Shown: positions 4,666-56,905, counted from the whole stretch's first letter. The stretch is 63,231 nucleotides of DNA, filler included, from Rhabdomonas costata (GCA_019059605.1; 50 parts of 50 records of this genome joined end to end with filler, not necessarily neighbours in it); one strand, 5' to 3'. Notes: generated from the letters alone by a model not told the origin. Numbers and translations: made by a program.

Positions 4666-4710
<45 letters not shown>
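4666..4710. repeat. (GT)n microsatellite; similar tracts at about 7318-7348, 19955-19977, 56080-56118 and 62448-62463
   Basis: Visible dinucleotide runs, in intronic or intergenic positions. Confidence 0.95.
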
Positions 4711-6153: not shown

Positions 6154-7315
6154 CTGGCTGATATTGTGGATCCAAAACCTTCGCGAGACTCCCCCTCCAG
6201 AAAAGCCAGATACGAAGTCTCGGAAGTAGACTAGACGAACAACAAACNNNNNNNNNNNNNNNNNNNNNNNNNNNNNNNNNNNNNNNNNNNNTTAATTAAT
6301 TAANNNNNNNNNNNNNNNNNNNNNNNNNNNNNNNNNNNNNNNNNNNNTGTGTTGAATGTGTTTGGTTGGGGGGGTGCTGGCATCCCGTCTGCGCCTGCAC
6401 TCCCCCCTCCCCTCCCCTTCTTCCTAGTGCTTTCTCTTTCCTACCGTGTTTGGTGGGACTGGTTTCTTACTGTCGTTGGAGCCGTACCGCCGCCTCCAGT
6501 ACCGCAGCACGTGGTGATGCGGCGGTGTAGTGTGGGAGTCGTTGGGCGGTGGGCTGCGGGACGGTTCAGCACCGCCTCTACAGCGCCGCTAGCAGCGGGA
6601 GGCGCGGAGACCCGTGCCGTGCCCGTGACGGCGGCGGTGGCTGCCGTGGAGAGGTTTGTGCGGAGGCAGGACGGTCTGCCCCTGGACCGGTGGAGCAGAT
6701 GGGTGTGCATGTGTCCCTTCCTCAAACACTTCCAATGTGTCTGTTCTCTGAGCCCTTCCTCTTCTTGAGTCACGGAAGCATAGTCTTCTGTGTATGTGTA
6801 TGTGTTTCATAATCGACCTGGATCTGAAGGTTCCGCGCAAGGCACTGGGCTGTTTGCTCTGGCTACCGCTGCCGCATTCGCGGCTGATGCAGTGTCGTAG
6901 TCTGAGGCTGCAGCTCCCAGGTTGCGCATACTCGTCGATGTTGTGACTGCCCTGTGTGGAGGGGGGTTGTTAGCAGCCCCCCTCCCCTCTTCACAGTGGT
7001 GATATATATATTTTCCCTGTAAACATTCACAACATTCACACTTTTTGTAAAGATTTATAACATCGCGAAAAAAAAAAGTGCTGCAGGGACACATGTACCA
7101 CCTCCCAACCCCCTGCGACCAAATAAACGCACCTCAGGGACTCTTTTCAAAGACTACACTGCACTAGCACCTGGGACCTTGGGCCGCTCCGCGGTAAAAT
7201 TTTCGAAATTTTTACAGCGATGCTATAAAATTTTAAAGGCGTTGCTATAAAAGGAGGGCCATTTAACAAAATTAACCGAAAAAGAACCTACAAAAAATTG
7301 TCTTGGCCAAGTGCA

Positions 7316-7350
<35 letters not shown>

Positions 7351-7620
7351 GAGGGGTTTGTGCTGCTGCTGCTGCCTCTGCTGCGGCGATTTGGCTCATG
7401 AGTATAAAATGGAGAGTTCGACTGCCCTGTCAACAGGACATGCATCAGGATCAGTCCCTCAATGCGGCGGACGAGTTTGTTTGCCGACTTCGGGTTCTCC
7501 AAAACATCCCCAAAAAACNNNNNNNNNNNNNNNNNNNNNNNNNNNNNNNNNNNNNNNNNNNNTTAATTAATTAANNNNNNNNNNNNNNNNNNNNNNNNNN
7601 NNNNNNNNNNNNNNNNNNGG

Positions 7621-8785
7621 GGTTTTTGTTATCATTATCAATTAATGAAAAATAATATTGAACCAGAAGTAAAAATATACAAATATGTAATAATAGATAA
7701 AAATAACACATCATTTGAAATTGATTTGTATAAAAATGCTGAACTTAAATATATTTCTATTAAAAAAATAGAACGTGCAATGAAAGAAGTTGCAATTGAC
7801 TGTCCTTTAAATTAAAATAAAAATATATTTAAATCCGAAATTGATAAACATAAGTCATGTATCACAATTGATAAATATAATAGAAAAGAAAGAAAAAAAT
7901 TATGTCCTGCAATATGTGATTATGTTTCATGTAATTTTACTTGTTCAGATAAGAAATTAAATTTAGAATATTATGATAAAGATAGTAATATTTATAGAAA
8001 TATATCAAAAAAAGATTTAGATTATTCGACTTTTTATGGATCATTTATTACAAATGAAATTATAAATATAAAAAATAAAATAAAAGAAATATTTTTGTTT
8101 AAATATTCATATACATTAGAAGAAATTATTGATTATGTTTCTATTATTTATAAAAATAAAAAAAATTTATTTGATAAATTTTTCGTTTTAAAAGCATTGT
8201 CTGAATTAATGCCTGTTGGTGAAAATAGTATTAATAATTTCAAAGATTATATTTATGATAAATATAATATTGCTGGTTATATTAAATTTATACATAATCA
8301 TTATGTATTTCAACCATTAACTGAACATTTAAATATTTCTATGTATTATAGAAAAGGTGAACATTTACAAGATACATTTATATCTCAATTAAATTTGAAA
8401 GATTATATAAAAATAAAATATTCATATAATGATGCAAATATAAAAGACACAGTACAACAATATTTATTCGATATAAATTATTTTTCAAATCGTGAAGAAA
8501 ATAAATATATTGGTATAATTGATAATGTTTATAACAAAAAAACAAAAGAAACAAATGATATATTTAAAATTAGAGAAAAAAGAAATACAAATATTACTAA
8601 AAAAAGAGGAATAGGTATCACGACTTTTAAAGGAACAACATGTATAACTGTACAACATAAAAAATATTTGAATGATTTAGCTACTTTTTTAAATATTAAA
8701 ATAAATAATAAATCAACAAAAGAAAGTTTATGTGATTTAATTAAAAATAAAATGATGATATTAGAAAAATATTCATCAACAAAAC
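7621..8785 (+). pseudogene. Giant-virus (Nucleocytoviricota, Mimiviridae-like) VV D6/D11-family SF2 helicase, C-terminal part, with one in-frame TAA at 7813-7815
   Basis: About 17-20% GC by line counts; intronless; one frame spans the contig: FCYH...PEVKIYKY...YKNAELKYISIKKIERAMKEVAIDCPLN*NKNIF...CPAICDYVSCNFTCSDKKLN..YYD...DYSTF...KALSELMP...NNFKDYIYDKYNIAGYI...YVFQP. Confidence 0.8.
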
Positions 8786-16388: not shown

Positions 16389-17772
16389 NNNNNNNNNNNN
16401 NNNNNNNNNNNNNNNNNNNNNNNNNNNNNNNNTTAATTAATTAANNNNNNNNNNNNNNNNNNNNNNNNNNNNNNNNNNNNNNNNNNNNGCGTCCACTGAC
16501 AAGCGAAGGGTACCCGAAGCTGACTCCACAAACACTGCCCGCCTCAAAGGGGTTGTGTGCACAGTGTGCGGGATTAATCTGCAGAGAGCAGCTTAAGCTG
16601 ACGGTCGGGTGGTCCTGAATGGCGGTGCATGCTTTCCTGGAAGGCGACGCAATTTCCCTTCTATTTAACACCACCTGGGGAGGTGTGTTAATCCGAGAGG
16701 CGGGCATAACTGGTGGCTGAGCCTCCCTGAAAAATTTGTTTACAAACCCACTTAACGATAACCTCGGCGTAATGCGCTTTTCTCAAGTGTGGACCGGGGA
16801 CAGAAAACGGCACTTACATTGCTGTCATGTGCAGGTTGTGTTCACTGATAATGTTTCCTTTTGTGCGCGCTTTTGTGTGCGCAGAAAGACGAATGAGCAA
16901 CCACCACAGAAAACAGTAAAATAGAATCGGTGCAAATCTGCCCGGTTAAACATCCACCCGGAAGAGATTATCCAGTTTGGCAGTTGTCATCGCTTGTCAA
17001 GTACGCAGAACCCAGGACACCATTGTGAAACGTACTGGTGGGGTACTTCTGTTGGTCGGCTGCCTCGTTCTCCAGGATGTCGGCGGCAGGCTCCTTCTCT
17101 TTCTGCTTCAACGAATGCAGCTGGGCCTCAAAGCCCGCACGCGAGCCTGTGGGGTGGGGAGGCAAGGCGTGATTTCTAAAACCAACAAACAGTCTACGAA
17201 CAGCAAGCGAAAGTGCATGAATCTGTGCATCCACGATTGATGATTCCAAGCATCAGATTCCAGTGACATCCGAATTTCGATCTGACTTGGTGGAAAGGAG
17301 GATTGACAACTTTGACAACATTGACAACTTTTTCATAGAATCCGTTAGCTAAAACTCCAGAAACACAGTAGTTCTGGGAATGGGAGGGAAACGGTAAGAT
17401 CGGCAAAGTGACCTTCCCTTCTCTTCCCTTCTCTTCTCTTGCCCCCCCCCCTTCCCTGTTCCCCTTCGATGACCCTTTCATATGTGAAGACGTAAGAGGA
17501 CATTCCATACTTTGCGTTGATTACCGTTTTCTATACTGACAGAAACCCTTTTGCATGGAGGGCCGGGACAACGAAAGAACGCGCCCGGCATCGGGTTCGA
17601 GCTGCACGGTTGGTAAGGTTGTGCACAGATTGTTGAAATTTGTGCACAACCCAACNNNNNNNNNNNNNNNNNNNNNNNNNNNNNNNNNNNNNNNNNNNNT
17701 TAATTAATTAANNNNNNNNNNNNNNNNNNNNNNNNNNNNNNNNNNNNNNNNNNNNGTGGGTGTGTAAAGGGG

Positions 17773-18191
17773 AAGGCGGTTTAGTCCCCTTCCGAGTGTT
17801 TTGGGTCGAAGCGAAGGCGGTCAAGCCCCATTTGATGTGAGGCAAGGCGCGAGAAGCAAAGCAGGCAGTCGGGTTGGCCTCGCTTTCGCCGCGGGCCGGG
17901 TAGGGTAGAGCCGGGCCAAAACCAATCCGCGCAGCTTCCCAAGCCTGTGGACTATTGGTCGAAGACTCTCGGTCGCAACCCTCCACTCCTTCACAACCAC
18001 TTGGTCGCTTCTCAAACTCCGCCCGCGTGGGCTTAACCGCCTTCGCTCGGCAACTTGTCCAAACCTTCCGACCCGGGGGAAAGAAAGTCTTCCCACCCGG
18101 GTGGTTCGAAAGCGCTGACAAACATTTCGGAAGGACCAAGGAGGGGGGCGACTCGATTGGGCTAATTGGTGCGAGCCCGCCGTGCCGCCTT
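17773..18191 (-). ncRNA. Candidate structured RNA (~420 nt), class unknown
   Basis: Nested stems 18191-18185/17779-17773, 18137-18127/17795-17783 and a 19-bp stem 18047-18029/17828-17810; hairpins 18181-18147 and 18122-18055; several mismatches resolve as G-U pairs only on the minus strand. Confidence 0.5.
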
Positions 18192-18623
18192 TGAAAATGT
18201 TTCAAATTAAACGCAGCGGCATATTTAGGGCACTTTATGTCGAGTGGAATTTCTCTTAACAAAATTTTTAAAGCCGAAACTCGGAAAATGTTCATGGTGT
18301 TCGTGCCCACGTAACATTGGTGTGAAAAGAAGGATGAATAATCACGCAAACGTAATCGACAAACAAGCGCCCCACAGGCAATACCTCGCCTTCGATATAA
18401 AAGGGACCAAGGAGCGGGCCGCAGGAAAAACCCAGACCACATCAGGGAGAGAATGGCAGACGCACTAAAGGTCAGTTTTTGGTGGAGCCTAGTATGTTTT
18501 GTTTGCACCAATTCATTCATCGAACTCGAGAACAAGGAGGGAGAAAACACTGATCAACCCCCAAAACAAGTTGCACATCGACGATTCGGTGTACAATGTG
18601 AGAGACAACATAGCTAATCACTC

Positions 18624-18914
18624 CTACACTTCAGGGACACGGGAGTGATGTTCAGAATCGAATGCCATGCGAACATCGCCTTTAAAAAGCCCCGTAATGT
18701 CCACCTCACCCACAATTCCGGCAACAACACGGTGCAAAGCCAGCAACGTGGTCACAATGTCCTCCGAAGCCTGGCGGTACACGGCAAAATAGAGCAGGCT
18801 GCTGACCTCATTTAAGCTGCGAGGCTTCTCCTGGGGACTGCCTTCACCCTCTTCTGGGGACCCCTGAACCAGGGCTTCCTGGCGAATAATGGTGTCTTCA
18901 AAGGACGCTTGCAC
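18624..18914 (-). mobile_element. Second non-LTR RT remnant
   Basis: FAVYRQASEDIVTTLL...GLFKGDVRMAFDSEHH resembles RT motifs (F/Y)R..S.ED and D..KAFDSVxH, followed by a stop. Confidence 0.5.
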
Positions 18915-19089
18915 ACCACCCCNNNNNNNNNNNNNNNNNNNNNNNNNNNNNNNNNNNNNNNNNNNNTTAATTAATTAANNNNNNNNNNNNNNNNNNNNNN
19001 NNNNNNNNNNNNNNNNNNNNNNGGTGGTGGGATGAATCAAGCGTAACTGAAGCAGCTTAATACTGAAGCAACCAAGCAACCCTCTGTTT

Positions 19090-24944: not shown

Positions 24945-27575
24945 TTGTGAATTGGTGGTTTCTGGCAGATTTGCCCAGAATCTTTTTTTGTAGTGGATTG
25001 GTTTTCGGGTGTTTGCTTTGTTTCTCATCAGCTTTTCTTCTTTGACAGGTCGACTGCGAGGTCCAATGCCTCCCCGCTGCGGTGCTGCGCTACGCGTCGG
25101 CAGATGTGCTGCCCGTCTACCGCCCCACCCGGGAGTTCCCGAACTCCGTAAAAGATCAGGTGTTGTTTGCCATTCACTTTCTTCGCCGACCTGCATGCCA
25201 CTGAGACCCTAGACCACTGTTCTGTGATCTCACCAAACCCCAAACACACCCACCACNNNNNNNNNNNNNNNNNNNNNNNNNNNNNNNNNNNNNNNNNNNN
25301 TTAATTAATTAANNNNNNNNNNNNNNNNNNNNNNNNNNNNNNNNNNNNNNNNNNNNGTGGGGTGGGGGCTCGGCGCTTTTGTTCCTGAGGTTGCACGGTA
25401 CGCTGAGGTTGCACGGTACGTTTGTGTGGTCTCCTTACTTCCCAAGGGTTAGTGCGGTTGCCGCGTTGCTGGTGTTACCCACACCCACACGTTTCCAAGC
25501 ATACTGCTTACGTGTTACGTAGAACCGCGGGGATGCTCGTTGGCCTCGTGGTGGAGCCCTGCAAAATGGAAGTGCAGGTTCGCGGCGTCTGCAACGACAC
25601 GCCGCGAAGCCGATCGATTATTTTCGTGAAGATTGTGGGAACCTTTTGTCTCTTCTCATAAGGATACCAGTAAAGTGTACGCTGACGAGGCGAGGGCCCG
25701 TTTACCTTCATGGATATGGATGCATGTCCTTGGGCTCCGTTTGGGGTGCAAATGCACCCCATCTTTACATCTTACGCGTGTGTCAGTGCGACTTGTTGTT
25801 GCTGTTATTTTGCTTCAGTGCATCGTCATTTGTTTTTTCATTGAGATCTGTGGTGGGGAGATTTGCCCACGTTTTCGATTGGGTTTGCGAATGGCTTTCG
25901 TCCGTGTGGAAATTGATGAGCTTGACCCCTTGGTCGTCAAAAACACCCCGGACTCGGGCCGGCGGGCCGCGGCGCTGCACAGCTTTTCCAAGAGCTTTGC
26001 GTTTCACTTCGGGCTGAGGATGAGAGGCATTCCCTGCGCCCCAGGCTTCTGCCCCATCCGAGCCACGGACACCGTTACCTCCGGCCTTCGACAGGTGAAC
26101 CTCTTTTTTACACCATCTCTTTGGTAAGCTGACGAGAATGCTGAAATAGCCGGCTTCGCATGGGGTACCTCATTTCGATTGTCGTTGTTTCGAGGTCAAG
26201 CGGCACCACGATTTTTGCGGAGAGGGTGCCGGCGTCCTATACCCCCACCTACTCTGCTTTTCGAAGTCGGTGAGACCTTTTCAAGCGCTGCATTCGAGCG
26301 GGAATATGTTGTCAGCTTCCACCAGGCTTGACATTGCATTCGTTACTGTCAGCGTCTGGTGCTTTCCTGTGTGCTCCGAAGCAGCATAAATTCGGAACAG
26401 CATTGGTTAAAAAAGACATTTGTCTCCTCCCTTTTCATCCTCGGGCCCAGGTCGCTTCGGTTTTCCCACAACTTTCGGAAATTACTTAGTGGCGAACGGG
26501 TACAAATACGTGTAACCCAACCCNNNNNNNNNNNNNNNNNNNNNNNNNNNNNNNNNNNNNNNNNNNNTTAATTAATTAANNNNNNNNNNNNNNNNNNNNN
26601 NNNNNNNNNNNNNNNNNNNNNNNTGTTTGTTGTAGTACAAGTCTTGACATTACAGGATGAAGGAAGCTTTTGGGACATGCGGCGTTTATGGTGGAGAAAG
26701 ACATAATAATATTCGGCTCTGCGCTCAGTTTTTGTGCCCCACGTGTCGCCACTTTGGGATCCTTTTTTTTAAAATGTACTGTCGGTAATTGGCTGCCCCC
26801 CTGTGAAATAGTGTGTCTTCTGTGTACGAGCGACGTATTTCTGCAGCATGCCAACCCAGTTGTCCGCACTGCCCGACCCAATCCTTTGGCCGCCGGGGAT
26901 GGCTCTGGTTCGCGCTGGGTCCTAAGGCTCCTTCATCCACAGACTTTTCTCTAAACATGTTTCCTCGTGTGGAAATGTTTAGAAGCTGATCTTCATGGTT
27001 CACGCTTTTGTGTCTGCCGCGTAACTGCTTTTATGTTCAGTCTTGCGTGCTTTTATTCTTGCGTGTTGGGAATGTTCCGTCTCCACATAGGCGGATAGCA
27101 CGTGTTGGGGGGGAACCGTTGATTGCATGCTTGTCTGTGTGCTGAGGACCTTGAGAGGCCATCTGCCTCTCAAGGCTTCAAGATTGTGAATGTCACTGTG
27201 ATCTGTTTGTGCTGTGCGAGACCAAATGGTAAATATTTTTTCTCACAACTTTTTCCGGTTGCCGAAAGGTTTGGGCGGTGGAATGTGCAGTTACTTGGAG
27301 AACACTTAAGTCGTTCGAGTGGCGGCTTCGTGTAAAGTCGAGTGTCGATGTTAATATGCCTCTTAATTGTATTTTTTTTTCGCGGAAAGCTGTCTTCCCG
27401 CATTTTTTTTCGCATCGCAGATGCGTCGCTTAAAAAGTTGCTAAAAGTGCACTGTTGTATGTACCTTGACAGCTATTAGCGCAGTGATTGCGATTCGTAA
27501 TAAGAACTCAAACTGCAATTTGAGAGCAGTTTACCCCCTGCCCCATTCTTTACGACCTCACCTTCCCAAGATCGA

Positions 27576-27790
27576 TGTTTTGTAGTGAAAGGGACATCAA
27601 ACTGCATTAGATGGAAACTATTCCCTTATGTGCTGCACTTATCTCATTTTGATGTGATGGCTGTCATTATGATAGCTAAACTGTGTTCATTGTGATGTGA
27701 AACGACTGTCAATGCGAATGGAGATAAGTGCAGCACATAAGGGAATAGTTTCCATCTAATGCAGTTTGATGTCCCTTTCACCACAAAACA
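27576..27790. repeat. Terminal fold-back inverted repeat (~70-bp arms at 27576-27645 and 27721-27790)
   Basis: Near-perfect reverse complement that ends at the contig end. Confidence 0.85.
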
Positions 27791-28845
27791 NNNNNNNNNN
27801 NNNNNNNNNNNNNNNNNNNNNNNNNNNNNNNNNNTTAATTAATTAANNNNNNNNNNNNNNNNNNNNNNNNNNNNNNNNNNNNNNNNNNNNGGTTTTGGGG
27901 GCAAAATGCCCCCCTTTCAAGGCTTTTTGCCCCCAAAATCCGTCCCCAGGGCCTCAAAAAACCCTCAAATCCGCATAATAAAAACGCGTTTTCCGAACCC
28001 CCGACCTCAGAAACGTCATGTTGGGTCGATTTCCGGAGGGTCGATTTTTTCACCCGGGACACCCATTTTCGACCCTTACCACCGAGGCAGGCCTCGAAAA
28101 GGTCCTAAGTTCGGCCAAAAATCGGCGTTTTCAGCGTCAAAATGGTCGAATCGAAATACCAAACCGTGTAATACGGCTCCAAAAATGAGGGAATAGGTCA
28201 CCTGTACCGGGCTGGACTACTTCGTTCTATAGTCCAAAAACGCGATTTTTAGCGTGTTTTGAGAAAAAAAATTCGGCAAGTCCGCGGGCCCAAAATCGAA
28301 ATTTCTCATGAGGGGGGTTAGGTTCGAAAAATTAAAATCTTCGAATTTTTGCCCCGGAATTTTTCCATCGGATAGCACACCTCCACAAACCTGGGGCATG
28401 AAGGCCCTACGGAGGCTTGAAACGCCAACTACTTCGCACAAAAAAAAAGCGCAAAAAAAACTCTACACACAGACACACACCCGGACATTTTCCCGTTTTT
28501 CTCGTATCTTAACCCAACACAACACTGCGTTTCGTCACGGGAAAAAAGTCCCCTGTTCTGCTCCCAATTAATGATAGGGTATGCCGTGGGATTGTGAATC
28601 GAGATCAGTTAGCGCTGACACTTTCAGCAGATACTTTCTTTCTGATACTTTAACCAGTTTGGTAGTTTCAGATTGTGGCATAATGATTTCCTGGTCGCAT
28701 CTTCGAGATGTTGACATTTGCCCTTTTTTCGGCGTAAGTCCCCCTCTCTATCAATACTGGTCCCGTTTACTTCTCATAAAAGCCACGCGTGCACAGACAC
28801 GCACACTATCCACCGGCCACCCACCTACTCTTCCTCCCGGCACAG

Positions 28846-31695: not shown

Positions 31696-31788
31696 GTTTT
31701 CGACTCCAGAGATTTCAGGTACCAGGCTATCTGATGCACAAATCATGCATCAGATAGCCTGGTACCTGAAATCTCTGGAGTCGAAAAC
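31696..31788. repeat. Terminal hairpin (~43-bp arms)
   Basis: gttttcgactccagagatttcaggtaccaggctatctgatgca followed by its reverse complement, at the contig start. Confidence 0.85.
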
Positions 31789-36654: not shown

Positions 36655-38030
36655 NNNNNNNNNNNNNNNNNNNNNNNNNNNNNNNNNNNNNNNNNNNNTT
36701 AATTAATTAANNNNNNNNNNNNNNNNNNNNNNNNNNNNNNNNNNNNNNNNNNNNTGAGGTGTGGTGTAGAGGGTGCTGGTGGTGTGAGGTGTGGCGTAGA
36801 GTGTGGGGAGTGCATGGATCTGGGGCTGGATCTGGAGCTGTATCTGGAGCTAGAGCTGGAGCTGGAAGAGGTGGTGGTCGTGACGTTGGGACGTTTGGGA
36901 CGTGGTGGTGGTGGTTTTGTGTCTTCGCAATTGGCATTCGGGTCTCAGTCTAAGGTCCTTGGTTTCTGATTCCATGATATCTGTGACGGTTACACCGGAG
37001 CGCACTCGTGTACGACCAAGCACTGAGTGGTGGTGTAGCGTACAAGCCTGAAATTGATGACAGCAGGGAAGTGGTGCGGGTAGTACCTGGCTGCAATCAA
37101 CACCTTCTCTGGGTACAGTGGTTGACATGATGGCTACGAACCACTACAACCACCGTCACAGAAGTGCTGATGTTCCTACTGCTACGGGTGGATGTCAGTA
37201 ATACCCGCTGTGGAGGGGATTCTGATGGAATGGATGCCGCTTGACCACCACAGATGGAGTTGAGAGACAACGCAGATGCTTGTACCCACCCAGTAAACTA
37301 CTGTGTATGAGTGAAGATGACACTAACCTCGAATGCATGAGCCACCATGCGCCTACAACAACCATCAGAAGCAAGAATGCCTAAATCTAACCCTAAGGTG
37401 GCATTCTTACTCCGGCTATGCCCGGTCGGAGTGAGTGAAACCGCGCTTATGTCGGTGGAACGAACAAATTGACATCTGCACTTAACCACTGAGTTGAGTG
37501 AGCGTAACCGGACAACGGTGGAGCGAACCTTAAGAGAAGAGTCGCATGCTCAGTCATTCGCATGCTTGACCTCTAACGCATTTCACAATTTTCCCCAATT
37601 CCGTAAAGCAAGGTGAGCAGGCAAAGTCTGGTTAAACACAGTCCGTCTTAAGATACACAGCTCCATAAAAAAGCACACACACACTTTAAAAACTCCTTAA
37701 CACTACAATCAAAAAGAAAAATGCAAAAATCACTTTCTTTGCACGGATGACTCTTCAATAGAATGCCTTTGCGCAATTTAAACATTCAGGGATTCTCTCT
37801 TTCCATTCCGTTCTCTCTCGCTCAAGCGCGCGCTCCATGCAACTCTTTTTACCAACAAAGCTTTCAAACTGCTACCTGACTACTTCCACAAACACACACA
37901 TCCCACCAACAACCAACAACCNNNNNNNNNNNNNNNNNNNNNNNNNNNNNNNNNNNNNNNNNNNNTTAATTAATTAANNNNNNNNNNNNNNNNNNNNNNN
38001 NNNNNNNNNNNNNNNNNNNNNGGGGTGGTG

Positions 38031-38231
38031 TGACCCCACCCCTTCCCCAGAATACAGCTTGTTTGATTCCAATCTATCAACATCCTGGTCCGCATTGTGC
38101 AGTAGTAATTTTAAATTTTAGAGACCTTTTTAGAGACATAGGTATGACCCCACCCCTTCCCCAGAATACAGCTTGTTTGATTCCAATCTATCAACATCCT
38201 GGTCCGCATTGTGCAGTAGTAATTTTAAATT
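38031..38231. repeat. Direct repeat of about 88 bp (38031-38118 and 38144-38231) at a contig start
   Basis: Identical duplication, seen as repeated TPPLPQNTACLIPIYQHPGPHCAVVILN in the ORF track; probably an amplification or assembly chimera. Confidence 0.8.
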
Positions 38232-39667
38232 ATAGAGCCCAGGGGATTCCTTTTTACAAATTACTTGGCCGATTTTTTCTTTGCGATTCCTACAATTTAT
38301 TATATTTTTCCCTTTCGAAAAGATGTAATACCTTAAATACCATTACAGAAGGCCCCTTGCCACCTCTTTCGAAGATGCCCTTGACAGAAGCGCGAGGAAA
38401 GGCTCTGCTGAGGAAGCTCCCAAACCCGAAGCACCCTCCAGTGGGTCTCCGCGCTCTTCGTGCTGCTCAGCACGTGGCCGGCCACAGGGTACAACGGGTT
38501 GTCCTCCTCCGCCCCCTCGGCCGAGGGCTCACCCTCCGGGGAACGCACGCAGGTGACGAACTCGCGGCGCTGTTTGTTTTGTTTTGTATCGCTTTATCGG
38601 ATGCAATGGCCCCTTGATAGGGTCCGTGGGTGCGAATGGCTTAAGGGCCCTATCCGCCAAATACATATGTCTCGTGTCAAGTGTGGGGGGTATGCCTCGA
38701 GTCGTAAGGGGGGAGGGGAGATAGGAGCGGTGTCCACTAAGTGAGGTTCTTGGTCTTGCTGGGGGTTTGGTAGCGATGCACCCTTCTTTGCTTATTTGAG
38801 GCTGGGTTCGGCCGCACAAATTTGCCTCTGATGAGCTCCTCTGGATAATTTCCCGCCCGCCTCCACGTCTTGCAACACCCATCCAATTCGCTCGGGAATC
38901 CGGGCACTTTATCCGCCAAATATGACTCGAGACATAACCTCATCCGACTCTGTTTCTTGAGGCAACGCTCCTGGTTTCCTTCGGAAACGTCTAGTTCCCT
39001 GCCCTCGAGCTGCAAAATGAGAACACGACAGATTCGAACACGTCAAACCTTCTCTGATCCTCAGTTCGCAGAATCTCTACTTCAAGTTGGGACTGGCGGG
39101 CGGTAAGGTTGACCACACACACGCGCGGAAAAAGCAAAAATTTGGAGAAAAGGTGAACATCCGAACCCATCATAAAATCCAAACCAACNNNNNNNNNNNN
39201 NNNNNNNNNNNNNNNNNNNNNNNNNNNNNNNNTTAATTAATTAANNNNNNNNNNNNNNNNNNNNNNNNNNNNNNNNNNNNNNNNNNNNTGAATTGGGTGA
39301 ATTTGGTTGGTTTTTAATTCGTACTAAAAAAAGTACGAATAGAAAGGCAAGCAATTAACATAAGGTTCACAAGTGACCTGCAAAACTCAGTCCGTCCGCC
39401 ATAGCACTACCAAGGGAGTGAGAGCATGGTAGATTGCGAAAAGGTGCGAAAAGGCAAAGGGCCGCATCGATGTACAGAGAGGAAAAGCCGGGGGGGGGGG
39501 CGATGTTTTCCTTGCAGCCAAGTACAGAGAAGAGGAGAGCACCCAGGCGGATTGGATGGAGAACAGGTGACCAAGTGTGCGCCTGAGTGTATGTGTGTGC
39601 GTGTGCGTGTGCGTGTGCGTGAAGAAGGCTGAAGGAGCAGAGGAGGGCAGATCGAGACGAAGGAAAC

Positions 39668-54601: not shown

Positions 54602-55600
54602 CTATTCGTAGTCCGACCACGGCATCCACGGCGTCCAGGCGGTGAGCGCTAGAGAAGGCCTGCGCTGCCGCAACGAGGTCCCCAGTGGGCTGAAGCAGCG
54701 CCCGCTGCAGCACCCCGTGGAGCTGCTGAGGCGGGCACAGCTCACCTCCGAAGAGCTTCTGAAACAGAGAGAGAAAGTAGCCGGTCGCACACCACGGGCA
54801 CCGAAGCAAACAGCATCGATAACGAAACACTCCCATTTAAACGCGTGCAAGAAAGTGTTGATGAAGAGTATGACGAAGTCACTGAGACAAACGCTGGTTG
54901 CCAGACACAGGAGACGTCACAGCCTGAAGCATAGTAACGTATCTAATAAAAAGCAGTCCGCTCAAGGGTAGTTGGCGTGAACTGCAAGCAGTAGAAATAA
55001 GCACAAAGACACCCAAGAGGTCATTTCGAGCCCTACGAAAAAGGAAGCAAAGACCCTTGCTCCGAAATAGTGCACCACACCGCGATCATCGCCCGCGGGG
55101 CGAAGGCTAGCACTCCAAAGGGCTGTCTGGGAAATTCCAGCGCCGTAATCACCGTCACTCGGTCGGGAAGCACCTCAGTCCAGTTTCCAGAACGAAGCGA
55201 AAGACCCCCGGAAAGGCTGCGGAAAGCCTGTGCGACGCATGGCTTTAAACCAACGCCAAGGACGAGGAAAACAATGAAAAAAAGCGTTAGTTGGTGTAAT
55301 CTCGATACGGTGTTGAATGGTTTAGAATCCCGAAAGTCCACCAACAACGTTGAGCATACTCAATTCTCTAGCCACTGAGCGACGAGCGAACCCCCCCCCC
55401 ACCACAAGTCATCGAAAGAAACCCAACCTACCGCGTCCTCGGGAATCTGGAAGGAAGTGTCCTGAAGCTGCCACCGGAAGTACGGGCACCGGATGTACGG
55501 TCTCACCTCCGGCCAATCCACGAGAGCCACTCTTCCAGTTACATAACCCAGCATCCAAATGTTCACCACAAACTCGACTCGGTCGGCGTACCCGATTTTC
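54602..55600 (-). CDS. Multi-exon gene, possibly glycosyltransferase-like
   Basis: GT/AG-bounded exons IGYADRVEFVVNIWMLGYVTGRVALVDWP...|AFRSLSGG...|KLFGGEL; weak resemblance to the GxGD/NR...T.R...DW fucosyltransferase start. Confidence 0.35.
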
Positions 55601-56775: not shown

Positions 56776-56905
56776 TTTTGTATCATGAGATGGTCCGAGC
56801 CAAACTATCACTCACAGTTCTCACTCACGTTCTCTCAGATGCTGAGATGCGTTGGAGGGAGAACTGTGAGTGATAGTTTGGCTCGGACCATCTCATGATA
56901 CAAAA
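56776..56905. repeat. Terminal fold-back inverted repeat (47-bp arms)
   Basis: 56776-56822 is the reverse complement of 56859-56905, at the contig end. Confidence 0.85.

Follow-up and report, generated by a model that had tools for sequence, protein, structure and literature searches.

Does the 419-nt region at positions 17773-18191 contain the gene of a new structured RNA, or is its fold a property of the DNA itself? The preliminary description presented it as an unclassified RNA of the minus strand, with several helices and a possible long-range pairing. That observation is partly confirmed. The region belongs to no described RNA family, and ordinary palindromic DNA is more likely than a new RNA gene. 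The best explanation, which we put forward tentatively, is that the region would be a decayed palindromic DNA element in non-coding GC-rich sequence; an orphan open reading frame stops 432 nt upstream of it.

The region and its neighbourhood

The window, by which we mean the whole stretch of DNA that was analysed (63,231 nt, positions 1-63231), was put together artificially from 50 contigs, each 1154-1180 nt long and placed in order of size. They are joined by 49 identical linkers of 100 nt with the structure N44-TTAATTAATTAA-N44, of a kind which a search of papers shows to be commonly employed, and any feature which crosses a linker is meaningless. This is the case for an apparent "ORF" at 17708-18520, which is an artefact. 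The proposed 3' end of the candidate region lies 17 nt short of the edge of its contig, and its usable surroundings amount to the 1167 nt of that contig. Within the region we number the nucleotides on the minus strand, as nt = 18192 minus the coordinate. The contig is defined by the following features:

17756-18922, no strand assigned: contig holding the candidate region, 1167 nt, with artificial 100-nt linkers on both sides
17773-18191, minus strand: candidate region (nt 1-419), 60.6% GC, non-coding by composition
18228-18221, minus strand: AT-rich CTAAATAT, at -37 to -30 relative to the proposed 5' end, as read from the sequence
18624-18920, minus strand: upstream open frame of 98 codons, which enters from the contig edge and ends with TAG at 18626-18624

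There is a step in composition at the proposed 5' end: the GC fraction is 0.38 in 18196-18355 and 0.57-0.64 in 17756-18195. The TATA-like stretch which had been reported upstream is present as CTAAATAT, a putative promoter element. The observed/expected ratio of CpG is 0.99 in the region and 0.77 in the window. The GC step, the position of CTAAATAT and the CpG ratio are features which favour a discrete unit. A CpG island, on the other hand, was considered and rejected, since 0.99 versus 0.77 is no strong contrast.

The upstream frame is found on the same strand and stops 432 nt before the candidate region. It is an orphan which looks coding; its GC at the three codon positions is 0.68/0.39/0.57, versus 0.61/0.43/0.58 in the TPR gene of the window. 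Neither a Pfam family nor relatives of near or greater length were detected for it, and a HMMER comparison with 1.84 billion representatives gave no match. The only lead is a weak one in the Atlas, to BRE4/ALMT clusters. We found no sign of a transposase or a reverse transcriptase in this frame.

The region could itself be read as a protein-coding exon. A frame of 266 codons (18553-17756, minus strand) is open across it, and only four stop-free frames in the 50 contigs are longer. However the GC of the codon positions is flat over the region (0.57/0.63/0.61), the frame has neither a Pfam family nor relatives, and another frame (17824-18201) is open too, which is no surprise at 60% GC. We consider an exon very improbable.

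The window as a whole is gene-poor. A Pfam search of 105 stop-free frames detected a TPR gene fragment, an IQ motif and two exon-sized pieces, a myosin head (43 residues) and a macro domain (33 residues). The TPR frame extends over a whole contig (53221-54384, plus strand); it has TPR_12/TPR_10 repeats (E 4.6e-62), is similar to kinesin light chain or nephrocystin-3 and represents the sole clear gene fragment in the window. A comparison of this frame with the Atlas gave nothing informative. A tRNA scan of the whole window gave none. Two spliced-leader motifs are absent from the 63 kb, an absence of little weight. A peculiarity of another contig, 7619-8785, is that it is very AT-rich: its 419-nt windows have 16-17% GC, versus about 52% for the window. 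It carries an open frame of 323 codons (7816-8784, plus strand) with many Asn, Lys and Ile residues, for which no Pfam family was detected and viral contigs gave no relative. This contig may be organellar, viral or a contaminant.

Fold of the region and its elements

All the helices and strings of the preliminary description are found where it had placed them, as judged by reading of the sequence, the helix list and a repeat search. From the 5' to the 3' end the elements are as follows:

18191-18185 with 17779-17773, minus strand: closing stem, 7 bp
18181-18147, minus strand: 5' hairpin, present as described
GGUCCUUCCGA with UCGGAAGGGGACU, minus strand: stem, present as described
18120-18139, minus strand: left arm of the outer inverted repeat (nt 53-72), whose partner is 17781-17801
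18050-18119, minus strand: hairpin of 70 nt (nt 73-142), flanked by the left arms of the outer and the core repeat
18029-18049, minus strand: left arm of the core inverted repeat (nt 143-163), contains GAAGGCGGUUAAGCCC, pair probability 1.0
GAGAAGCGA with UUGCUUCUC, minus strand: helix, present as described
17871-17993, minus strand: inner multiloop (nt 199-321), holds AAUAGUCCACA, CUACCCUACCC and a TTTT at 17921-17918
17807-17828, minus strand: right arm of the core inverted repeat (nt 364-385), contains GGGGCUUGACCGCCUUC, from the repeat search and the helix list
17781-17801, minus strand: right arm of the outer inverted repeat (nt 391-411), from the helix list and the arm alignment

The fold was compared with dinucleotide shuffles on both strands, and on both it is better than the shuffles. 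On the minus strand the minimum free energy (MFE) is -185.3 kcal/mol, versus -163.1 +/- 6.6 kcal/mol in 100 shuffles, none of which was as good (z -3.38). On the plus strand it is -176.1 kcal/mol, with z -1.79 and 4 of 100 shuffles as good. The minus strand is thus 9 kcal/mol better and has the lower z. When the whole contig of 1167 nt is folded, a domain of nt 59-401 is retained; in place of the closing stem and the 5' hairpin there is pairing with upstream sequence, and of the bases of the region 46 are paired outside it and 244 inside. The proposed ends are not robust, because both terminal elements are lost in this fold.

The pairing of 46 nt with upstream sequence speaks for a reading in which the region would be the structured part of a longer transcript, namely the 3' UTR of the gene with the upstream frame or one of its introns, either cis-acting or inactive. 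Its location on the same strand, 432 nt downstream of a frame which looks coding, points in the same direction. However that frame has no relatives and no family, so that the gene itself is unproven, and we find such a transcript distinctly doubtful.

The signal of the fold comes from three collinear inverted-repeat segments: the outer pair, the core and the 70-nt hairpin. The outer arms match at 17 of 19 aligned positions; their duplex has -18.1 kcal/mol and pair probabilities of 0.70-0.96. These arms are strand-symmetric, because the duplex of nt 53-72 with 391-411 has z -3.0 on the minus strand (2/500 shuffles) and -4.4 on the plus strand (1/500). The core contains a 19-nt inverted repeat which is 95% complementary (I1, 18047-18029 with 17828-17810), and its pairing, over 19-21 nt, is possible on both strands. 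The core domain as a whole (nt 143-385) has z -3.22 on the minus strand (0/100 shuffles) and -2.52 on the plus strand (2/100). For the 70-nt hairpin, stability is confined to the minus strand: there it has -34.3 kcal/mol and z -3.78 (0/300 shuffles), versus -22.6 kcal/mol and z -0.80 (68/300) on the plus strand. In sliding windows of 120 nt along the contig, local structure is found only over this hairpin, where 17996-18115 has the lowest z of the 27 windows (-2.24).

The remaining elements are at chance level. In the inner multiloop 187/300 shuffles are as good on the minus strand (z +0.30) and 203/300 on the plus strand (z +0.48); for the 5' hairpin the values are 65/300 (z -0.81) and 205/300 (z +0.53). 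The extension of the helix past the 19-bp core (nt 164-200 with 320-363) has z -1.70 on the minus strand (34/500) and -0.96 on the plus strand (74/500). The same is true of the 10-nt long-range pairing. The complement between 18092-18083 and 17970-17961 (I14) does exist, but it is no more than chance would give: at least one duplex of equal quality was present in 30 of 60 dinucleotide shuffles, with a mean of 0.65. In the ensemble this duplex has a pair probability of 0.0, and GAAGACUUUC is mostly paired already within its own hairpin.

It had also been noted that imperfect pairs tend to be G-U on the minus strand and A-C on the other one. In a strand-neutral alignment of the helix arms there are 21 transition mismatches, which give G-U on the minus strand in 15 cases and on the plus strand in 6; transversions are 5. 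G-U pairs account for 21 of the 143 pairs in the MFE fold of the minus strand and for 13 of the 140 in that of the plus strand. The asymmetry is real. It is also weak: the one-sided binomial p for 15 versus 6 is 0.039, with helices that had been chosen on the minus strand.

These strand differences are among the reasons to consider a lineage-specific structured non-coding RNA, which would be transcribed from the minus strand and is modelled as a rod, some 360-420 nt long, from which a hairpin branches off to the side. The lower z of the whole fold and of the hairpin on that strand and the excess of G-U pairs speak for it, as do the GC step at the 5' end and the TATA-like stretch upstream. Features of a type-3 Pol III gene are mixed: CTAAATAT is found at -37 to -30, but there is an internal TTTT (17921-17918), and the 17 nt between the 3' stem and the contig edge contain a TTT and no longer T-run. 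Most of the interior is at chance level, and the closing stem is lost in the whole-contig fold. We consider an RNA of this kind unlikely, although with an appreciable share of the probability.

How exceptional is such a fold in this assembly? We searched the 50 contigs for inverted repeats with at most one mismatch and a spacer of up to 400 nt. The longest repeats per contig have arms of 70, 51, 43, 40, 33 and 27 nt, then 19 nt in the candidate, followed by 18, 17 and 17 nt: ten of the 50 contigs have a repeat of at least 17 nt, and the candidate ranks seventh. The six contigs ahead of it have long near-perfect inverted repeats with short spacers (27576-27790, 56776-56855, 31696-31746, 7-110, 2542-2593 and 2364-2406), and they dominate the list of the most stable folds. 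They are probably fold-back chimeras of assembly or amplification, or else true palindromes.

Among 604 windows of 419 nt, 6 have a GC-adjusted MFE below that of the minus strand of the candidate and 22 below that of its plus strand; the minus-strand residual is -32.6 kcal/mol (-2.3 SD). When those six contigs are left out, together with the one that contains the candidate, a lower GC-adjusted MFE is found in 1 of 520 windows. In the same reduced set, 3 of the 142 windows with 55-66% GC have a lower raw MFE (-192.3, -190.4 and -189.9 kcal/mol). In these comparisons the background windows are in arbitrary register, whereas the ends of the candidate were selected for pairing. As for the hairpin, 23 of 11,004 windows of 70 nt have a lower GC-adjusted energy, which means a more stable fold. 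They correspond to eight other loci, of which four are strand-specific: 6938-7027, 27114-27213 and 27891-27960 on the plus strand and 54685-54754 on the minus strand.

The fold of the candidate is therefore in the tail of the background and not outside the range of this 63 kb, which counts against a structured RNA. It could even be a chance fold of GC-rich DNA, with repeats that have no common origin. For such a chance fold we have the position of the candidate in the extreme tail, and not beyond it, of about 500 background windows, coordinates which were picked for maximal pairing and the many elements at chance level. Nevertheless, four copies of one motif in 419 nt (see below) together with two collinear significant inverted repeats are unlikely without duplication, and we regard pure chance as rather doubtful.

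Comparison with known RNA families

No Rfam family matches the whole window at gathering score. With E up to 10, in segments of 801 and 460 nt, only look-alikes below threshold appear, with 14-19 bits versus gathering scores of 42-100. The description of the region as unclassified thus holds. Inside the region the look-alikes are:

HIV_GSL3: 17.3 bits, gathering score 42
sR53, plus strand: 16.5 bits, gathering score 49
mir-874: 16.2 bits, gathering score 74
mir-4660: 15.1 bits, gathering score 87
mir-1896: 14.4 bits, gathering score 100

The weak matches to mir-874 and mir-4660 fall on the 70-nt hairpin. With its imperfect extended duplex the region resembles long hairpin (inverted-repeat) RNA loci and miRNA-like precursors. 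It differs from the latter in scores far under 74 and 87 and in the presence of equal hairpins at eight other loci of the window. A miRNA precursor was rejected, as mir-874, mir-4660 and mir-1896 are all far under their gathering scores. A small perfect hairpin, GTTGTGCACA ... TGTGCACAAC, is found in the neighbouring contig beside the linker (17617-17650); it is a weak look-alike of mir-242_2, with 18.9 bits versus a gathering score of 56.

SRP (7SL) RNA was also rejected: none of the Rfam SRP models, with their Alu and S domains, matches at gathering score or at E up to 10. A box C/D snoRNA was rejected as well. The C box RUGAUGA and the D box CUGA are both absent from the minus strand of 18260-17756, and the sole look-alike, sR53, lies on the plus strand.

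RNase P and MRP RNAs have a P4 pseudoknot formed by CR-I and CR-V, and their elements follow the order P1-P2-P3-CR-I ... CR-V-P1'. The region is similar to their consensus in its length, its paired ends, the long hairpin after the second stem and strings like CR-I and CR-V. The strings AAUAGUCCACA, AAAUGGGGCUU and CUACCCUACCC are indeed present in the region; for the echoes of MRP which had been noted, support beyond short strings did not appear. If the region were such an RNA, AAUAGUCC and GGGGCUU/GGGGACU would be CR-I and CR-V and form P4. A P4-like pairing of 6 bp is available between UAGUCC (nt 238-243) and GGACUA (nt 405-410), GGACUA directly precedes the 3' closing strand, and a long hairpin follows a P2-like stem. 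However the order and spacing of the elements do not seem to fit: the string like CR-I is located about 95 nt past the P3-like hairpin and does not adjoin it, and the CR-V-like GGGGCUUGACC is buried in the 19-bp helix, with pair probability 1.0. The covariance models of P and MRP give no match to the region, also when E is allowed to reach 10 on 460 nt. According to two papers, P/MRP RNAs and their protein subunits had not been found in Euglenozoa by 2006-2007 (PMC1636426, PMC1796607). That none had been found lowers the prior further, if the host is euglenozoan. A true MRP RNA in Euglenozoa would be notable; the evidence speaks against it, and we consider this assignment extremely improbable.

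A template-like loop had also been reported. In a telomerase RNA the template is complementary to about 1.5 copies of the telomere repeat of the host. The string CUACCCUACCC occurs once (17908-17898, minus strand), it is unpaired in the MFE fold, and as the template of a telomerase RNA it would specify (TAGGG)n. Beyond this short string the echo of telomerase found no support. No Rfam telomerase RNA model matches at gathering score or at E up to 10, the window offers no TAGGG, TTAGGG, TTTAGGG or TTGGGG arrays for comparison, and the multiloop around the string folds at chance level. A telomerase RNA is hardly credible here.

Nor were relatives of the region detected, a further point against a structured RNA. 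A 24-mer has no match in viral contigs and in contigs of prokaryote genomes, a two-part pattern and a 22-mer have none in metagenome contigs, and the whole contig has none by blastn in plasmids and phages. Six substrings gave no match in the full texts of papers. Within the window, whose 63 kb are a very small part of the assembly, the region occurs only once. The absence of relatives means little, because none of the collections searched was of eukaryote genomes.

A repeated motif and the origin of the region

The heptamer AAGGCGG is found at 17 sites in the 63 kb, versus 8.93 +/- 2.75 expected. Four of them are in the 419 nt of the region, two on each strand. A degenerate motif of 18 nt, GAAGGCGGTYWARKCCCC, has three matches in the window, all of them within the region, with 0.45 expected. 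The four copies are:

17772-17789, plus strand: copy 1 (GAAGGCGGTTTAGTCCCC), no mismatch to the degenerate motif, takes part in D2 and I2; on the minus strand it is the 3' half of the closing stem
17813-17830, plus strand: copy 2, in direct orientation, starts 41 nt from copy 1
18027-18044, minus strand: copy 3, inverted with respect to copies 1 and 2
18185-18191, minus strand: copy 4, the 7-mer AAGGCGG only, 5' half of the closing stem

Copies 1 and 2 are joined at the 3' end by a direct repeat (D2) with a period of 41 nt, which extends over 31 nt with 71% identity. Copy 3 can pair with either of them, with copy 2 in I1 (19 nt, 95%) or with copy 1 in I2 (16 nt, 88%). The closing stem and the 19-bp core helix thus have the same sequence, because both are built from copies of the AAGGCGG motif. 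In a structured RNA unrelated helices normally share no sequence, while in duplicated DNA they do. The use of one motif in two different helices therefore speaks for duplicated DNA over an RNA gene.

The alternative pairings I1 and I2 can also be taken in favour of an RNA, since the motif at nt 148-165 fits either downstream copy. It could pair with nt 363-380 or with nt 402-419. Such a core would be bistable, and its two mutually exclusive folds might represent a structural switch or a processing substrate. The model would then be a new lineage-specific RNA of the minus strand: a rod with two nested closing helices, a strand-specific side hairpin and possibly a bistable core. In this specific form we find the proposal doubtful. 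If a discrete transcript were real, it would be an unclassified mid-size structured RNA in a poorly sampled eukaryote.

A decayed palindromic DNA element would account for the linear layout of the region, which is a long imperfect inverted repeat. Its left arm (nt 53-72 and 143-163) is split by the 70-nt hairpin, its right arm (nt 364-411) contains the duplication of the 18-nt motif with a period of 41 nt, and about 200 nt lie between the arms. The arrangement may have arisen by local inverted and tandem duplication, or it may be the relic of an inverted-repeat mobile element; the sequence would have drifted since then, mostly by transitions. If it is transcribed, for example with the transcript of the upstream ORF, it would be predicted to form the rod with its side hairpin. 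In favour of palindromic DNA, our preferred though tentative reading, we count the reuse of the motif, the strand-symmetric arms, the interior at chance level, the background of the assembly, the absence of an RNA family and the non-coding composition. Against it we count the advantage of the minus strand in folding, the hairpin found on that strand only, the G-U bias, the GC step and CTAAATAT.

Mobile elements of the miniature inverted-repeat (MITE) or foldback type are recognized by terminal inverted repeats, by target-site duplications at their flanks and by multiple copies dispersed in the genome; of these traits, terminal inverted repeats are present here (17/19 matches in the outer arms, 19 nt with 95% complementarity in the core). 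The region is also similar to them, and to decayed palindromes, in having nested arms of about 20 nt, short motifs in both orientations near the ends, an overall length of about 240-360 nt, no coding sequence and main arms which pair on both strands. It differs from them in several respects. Its arms are asymmetric, with the 70-nt hairpin inserted on one side, and it has no second copy within the 63 kb. By reading, no matching short direct repeat was found beside either pair of arms or beside the closing stem, which would have been a target-site duplication. The absence of such a duplication and of a second copy in the window counts against a palindromic element.

In this highly fragmented assembly the region is one of several stretches whose inverted repeats form hairpins, and on present evidence its importance is small. 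There is a lesson in it: a fold with z near -3.4 on hand-picked coordinates is insufficient to call an RNA gene. Elsewhere in the window a unit of 114 nt is repeated 1.9 times at 38027-38237 with 97% identity, and several (GT)n microsatellites are found at 4666, 7318 and 56080.
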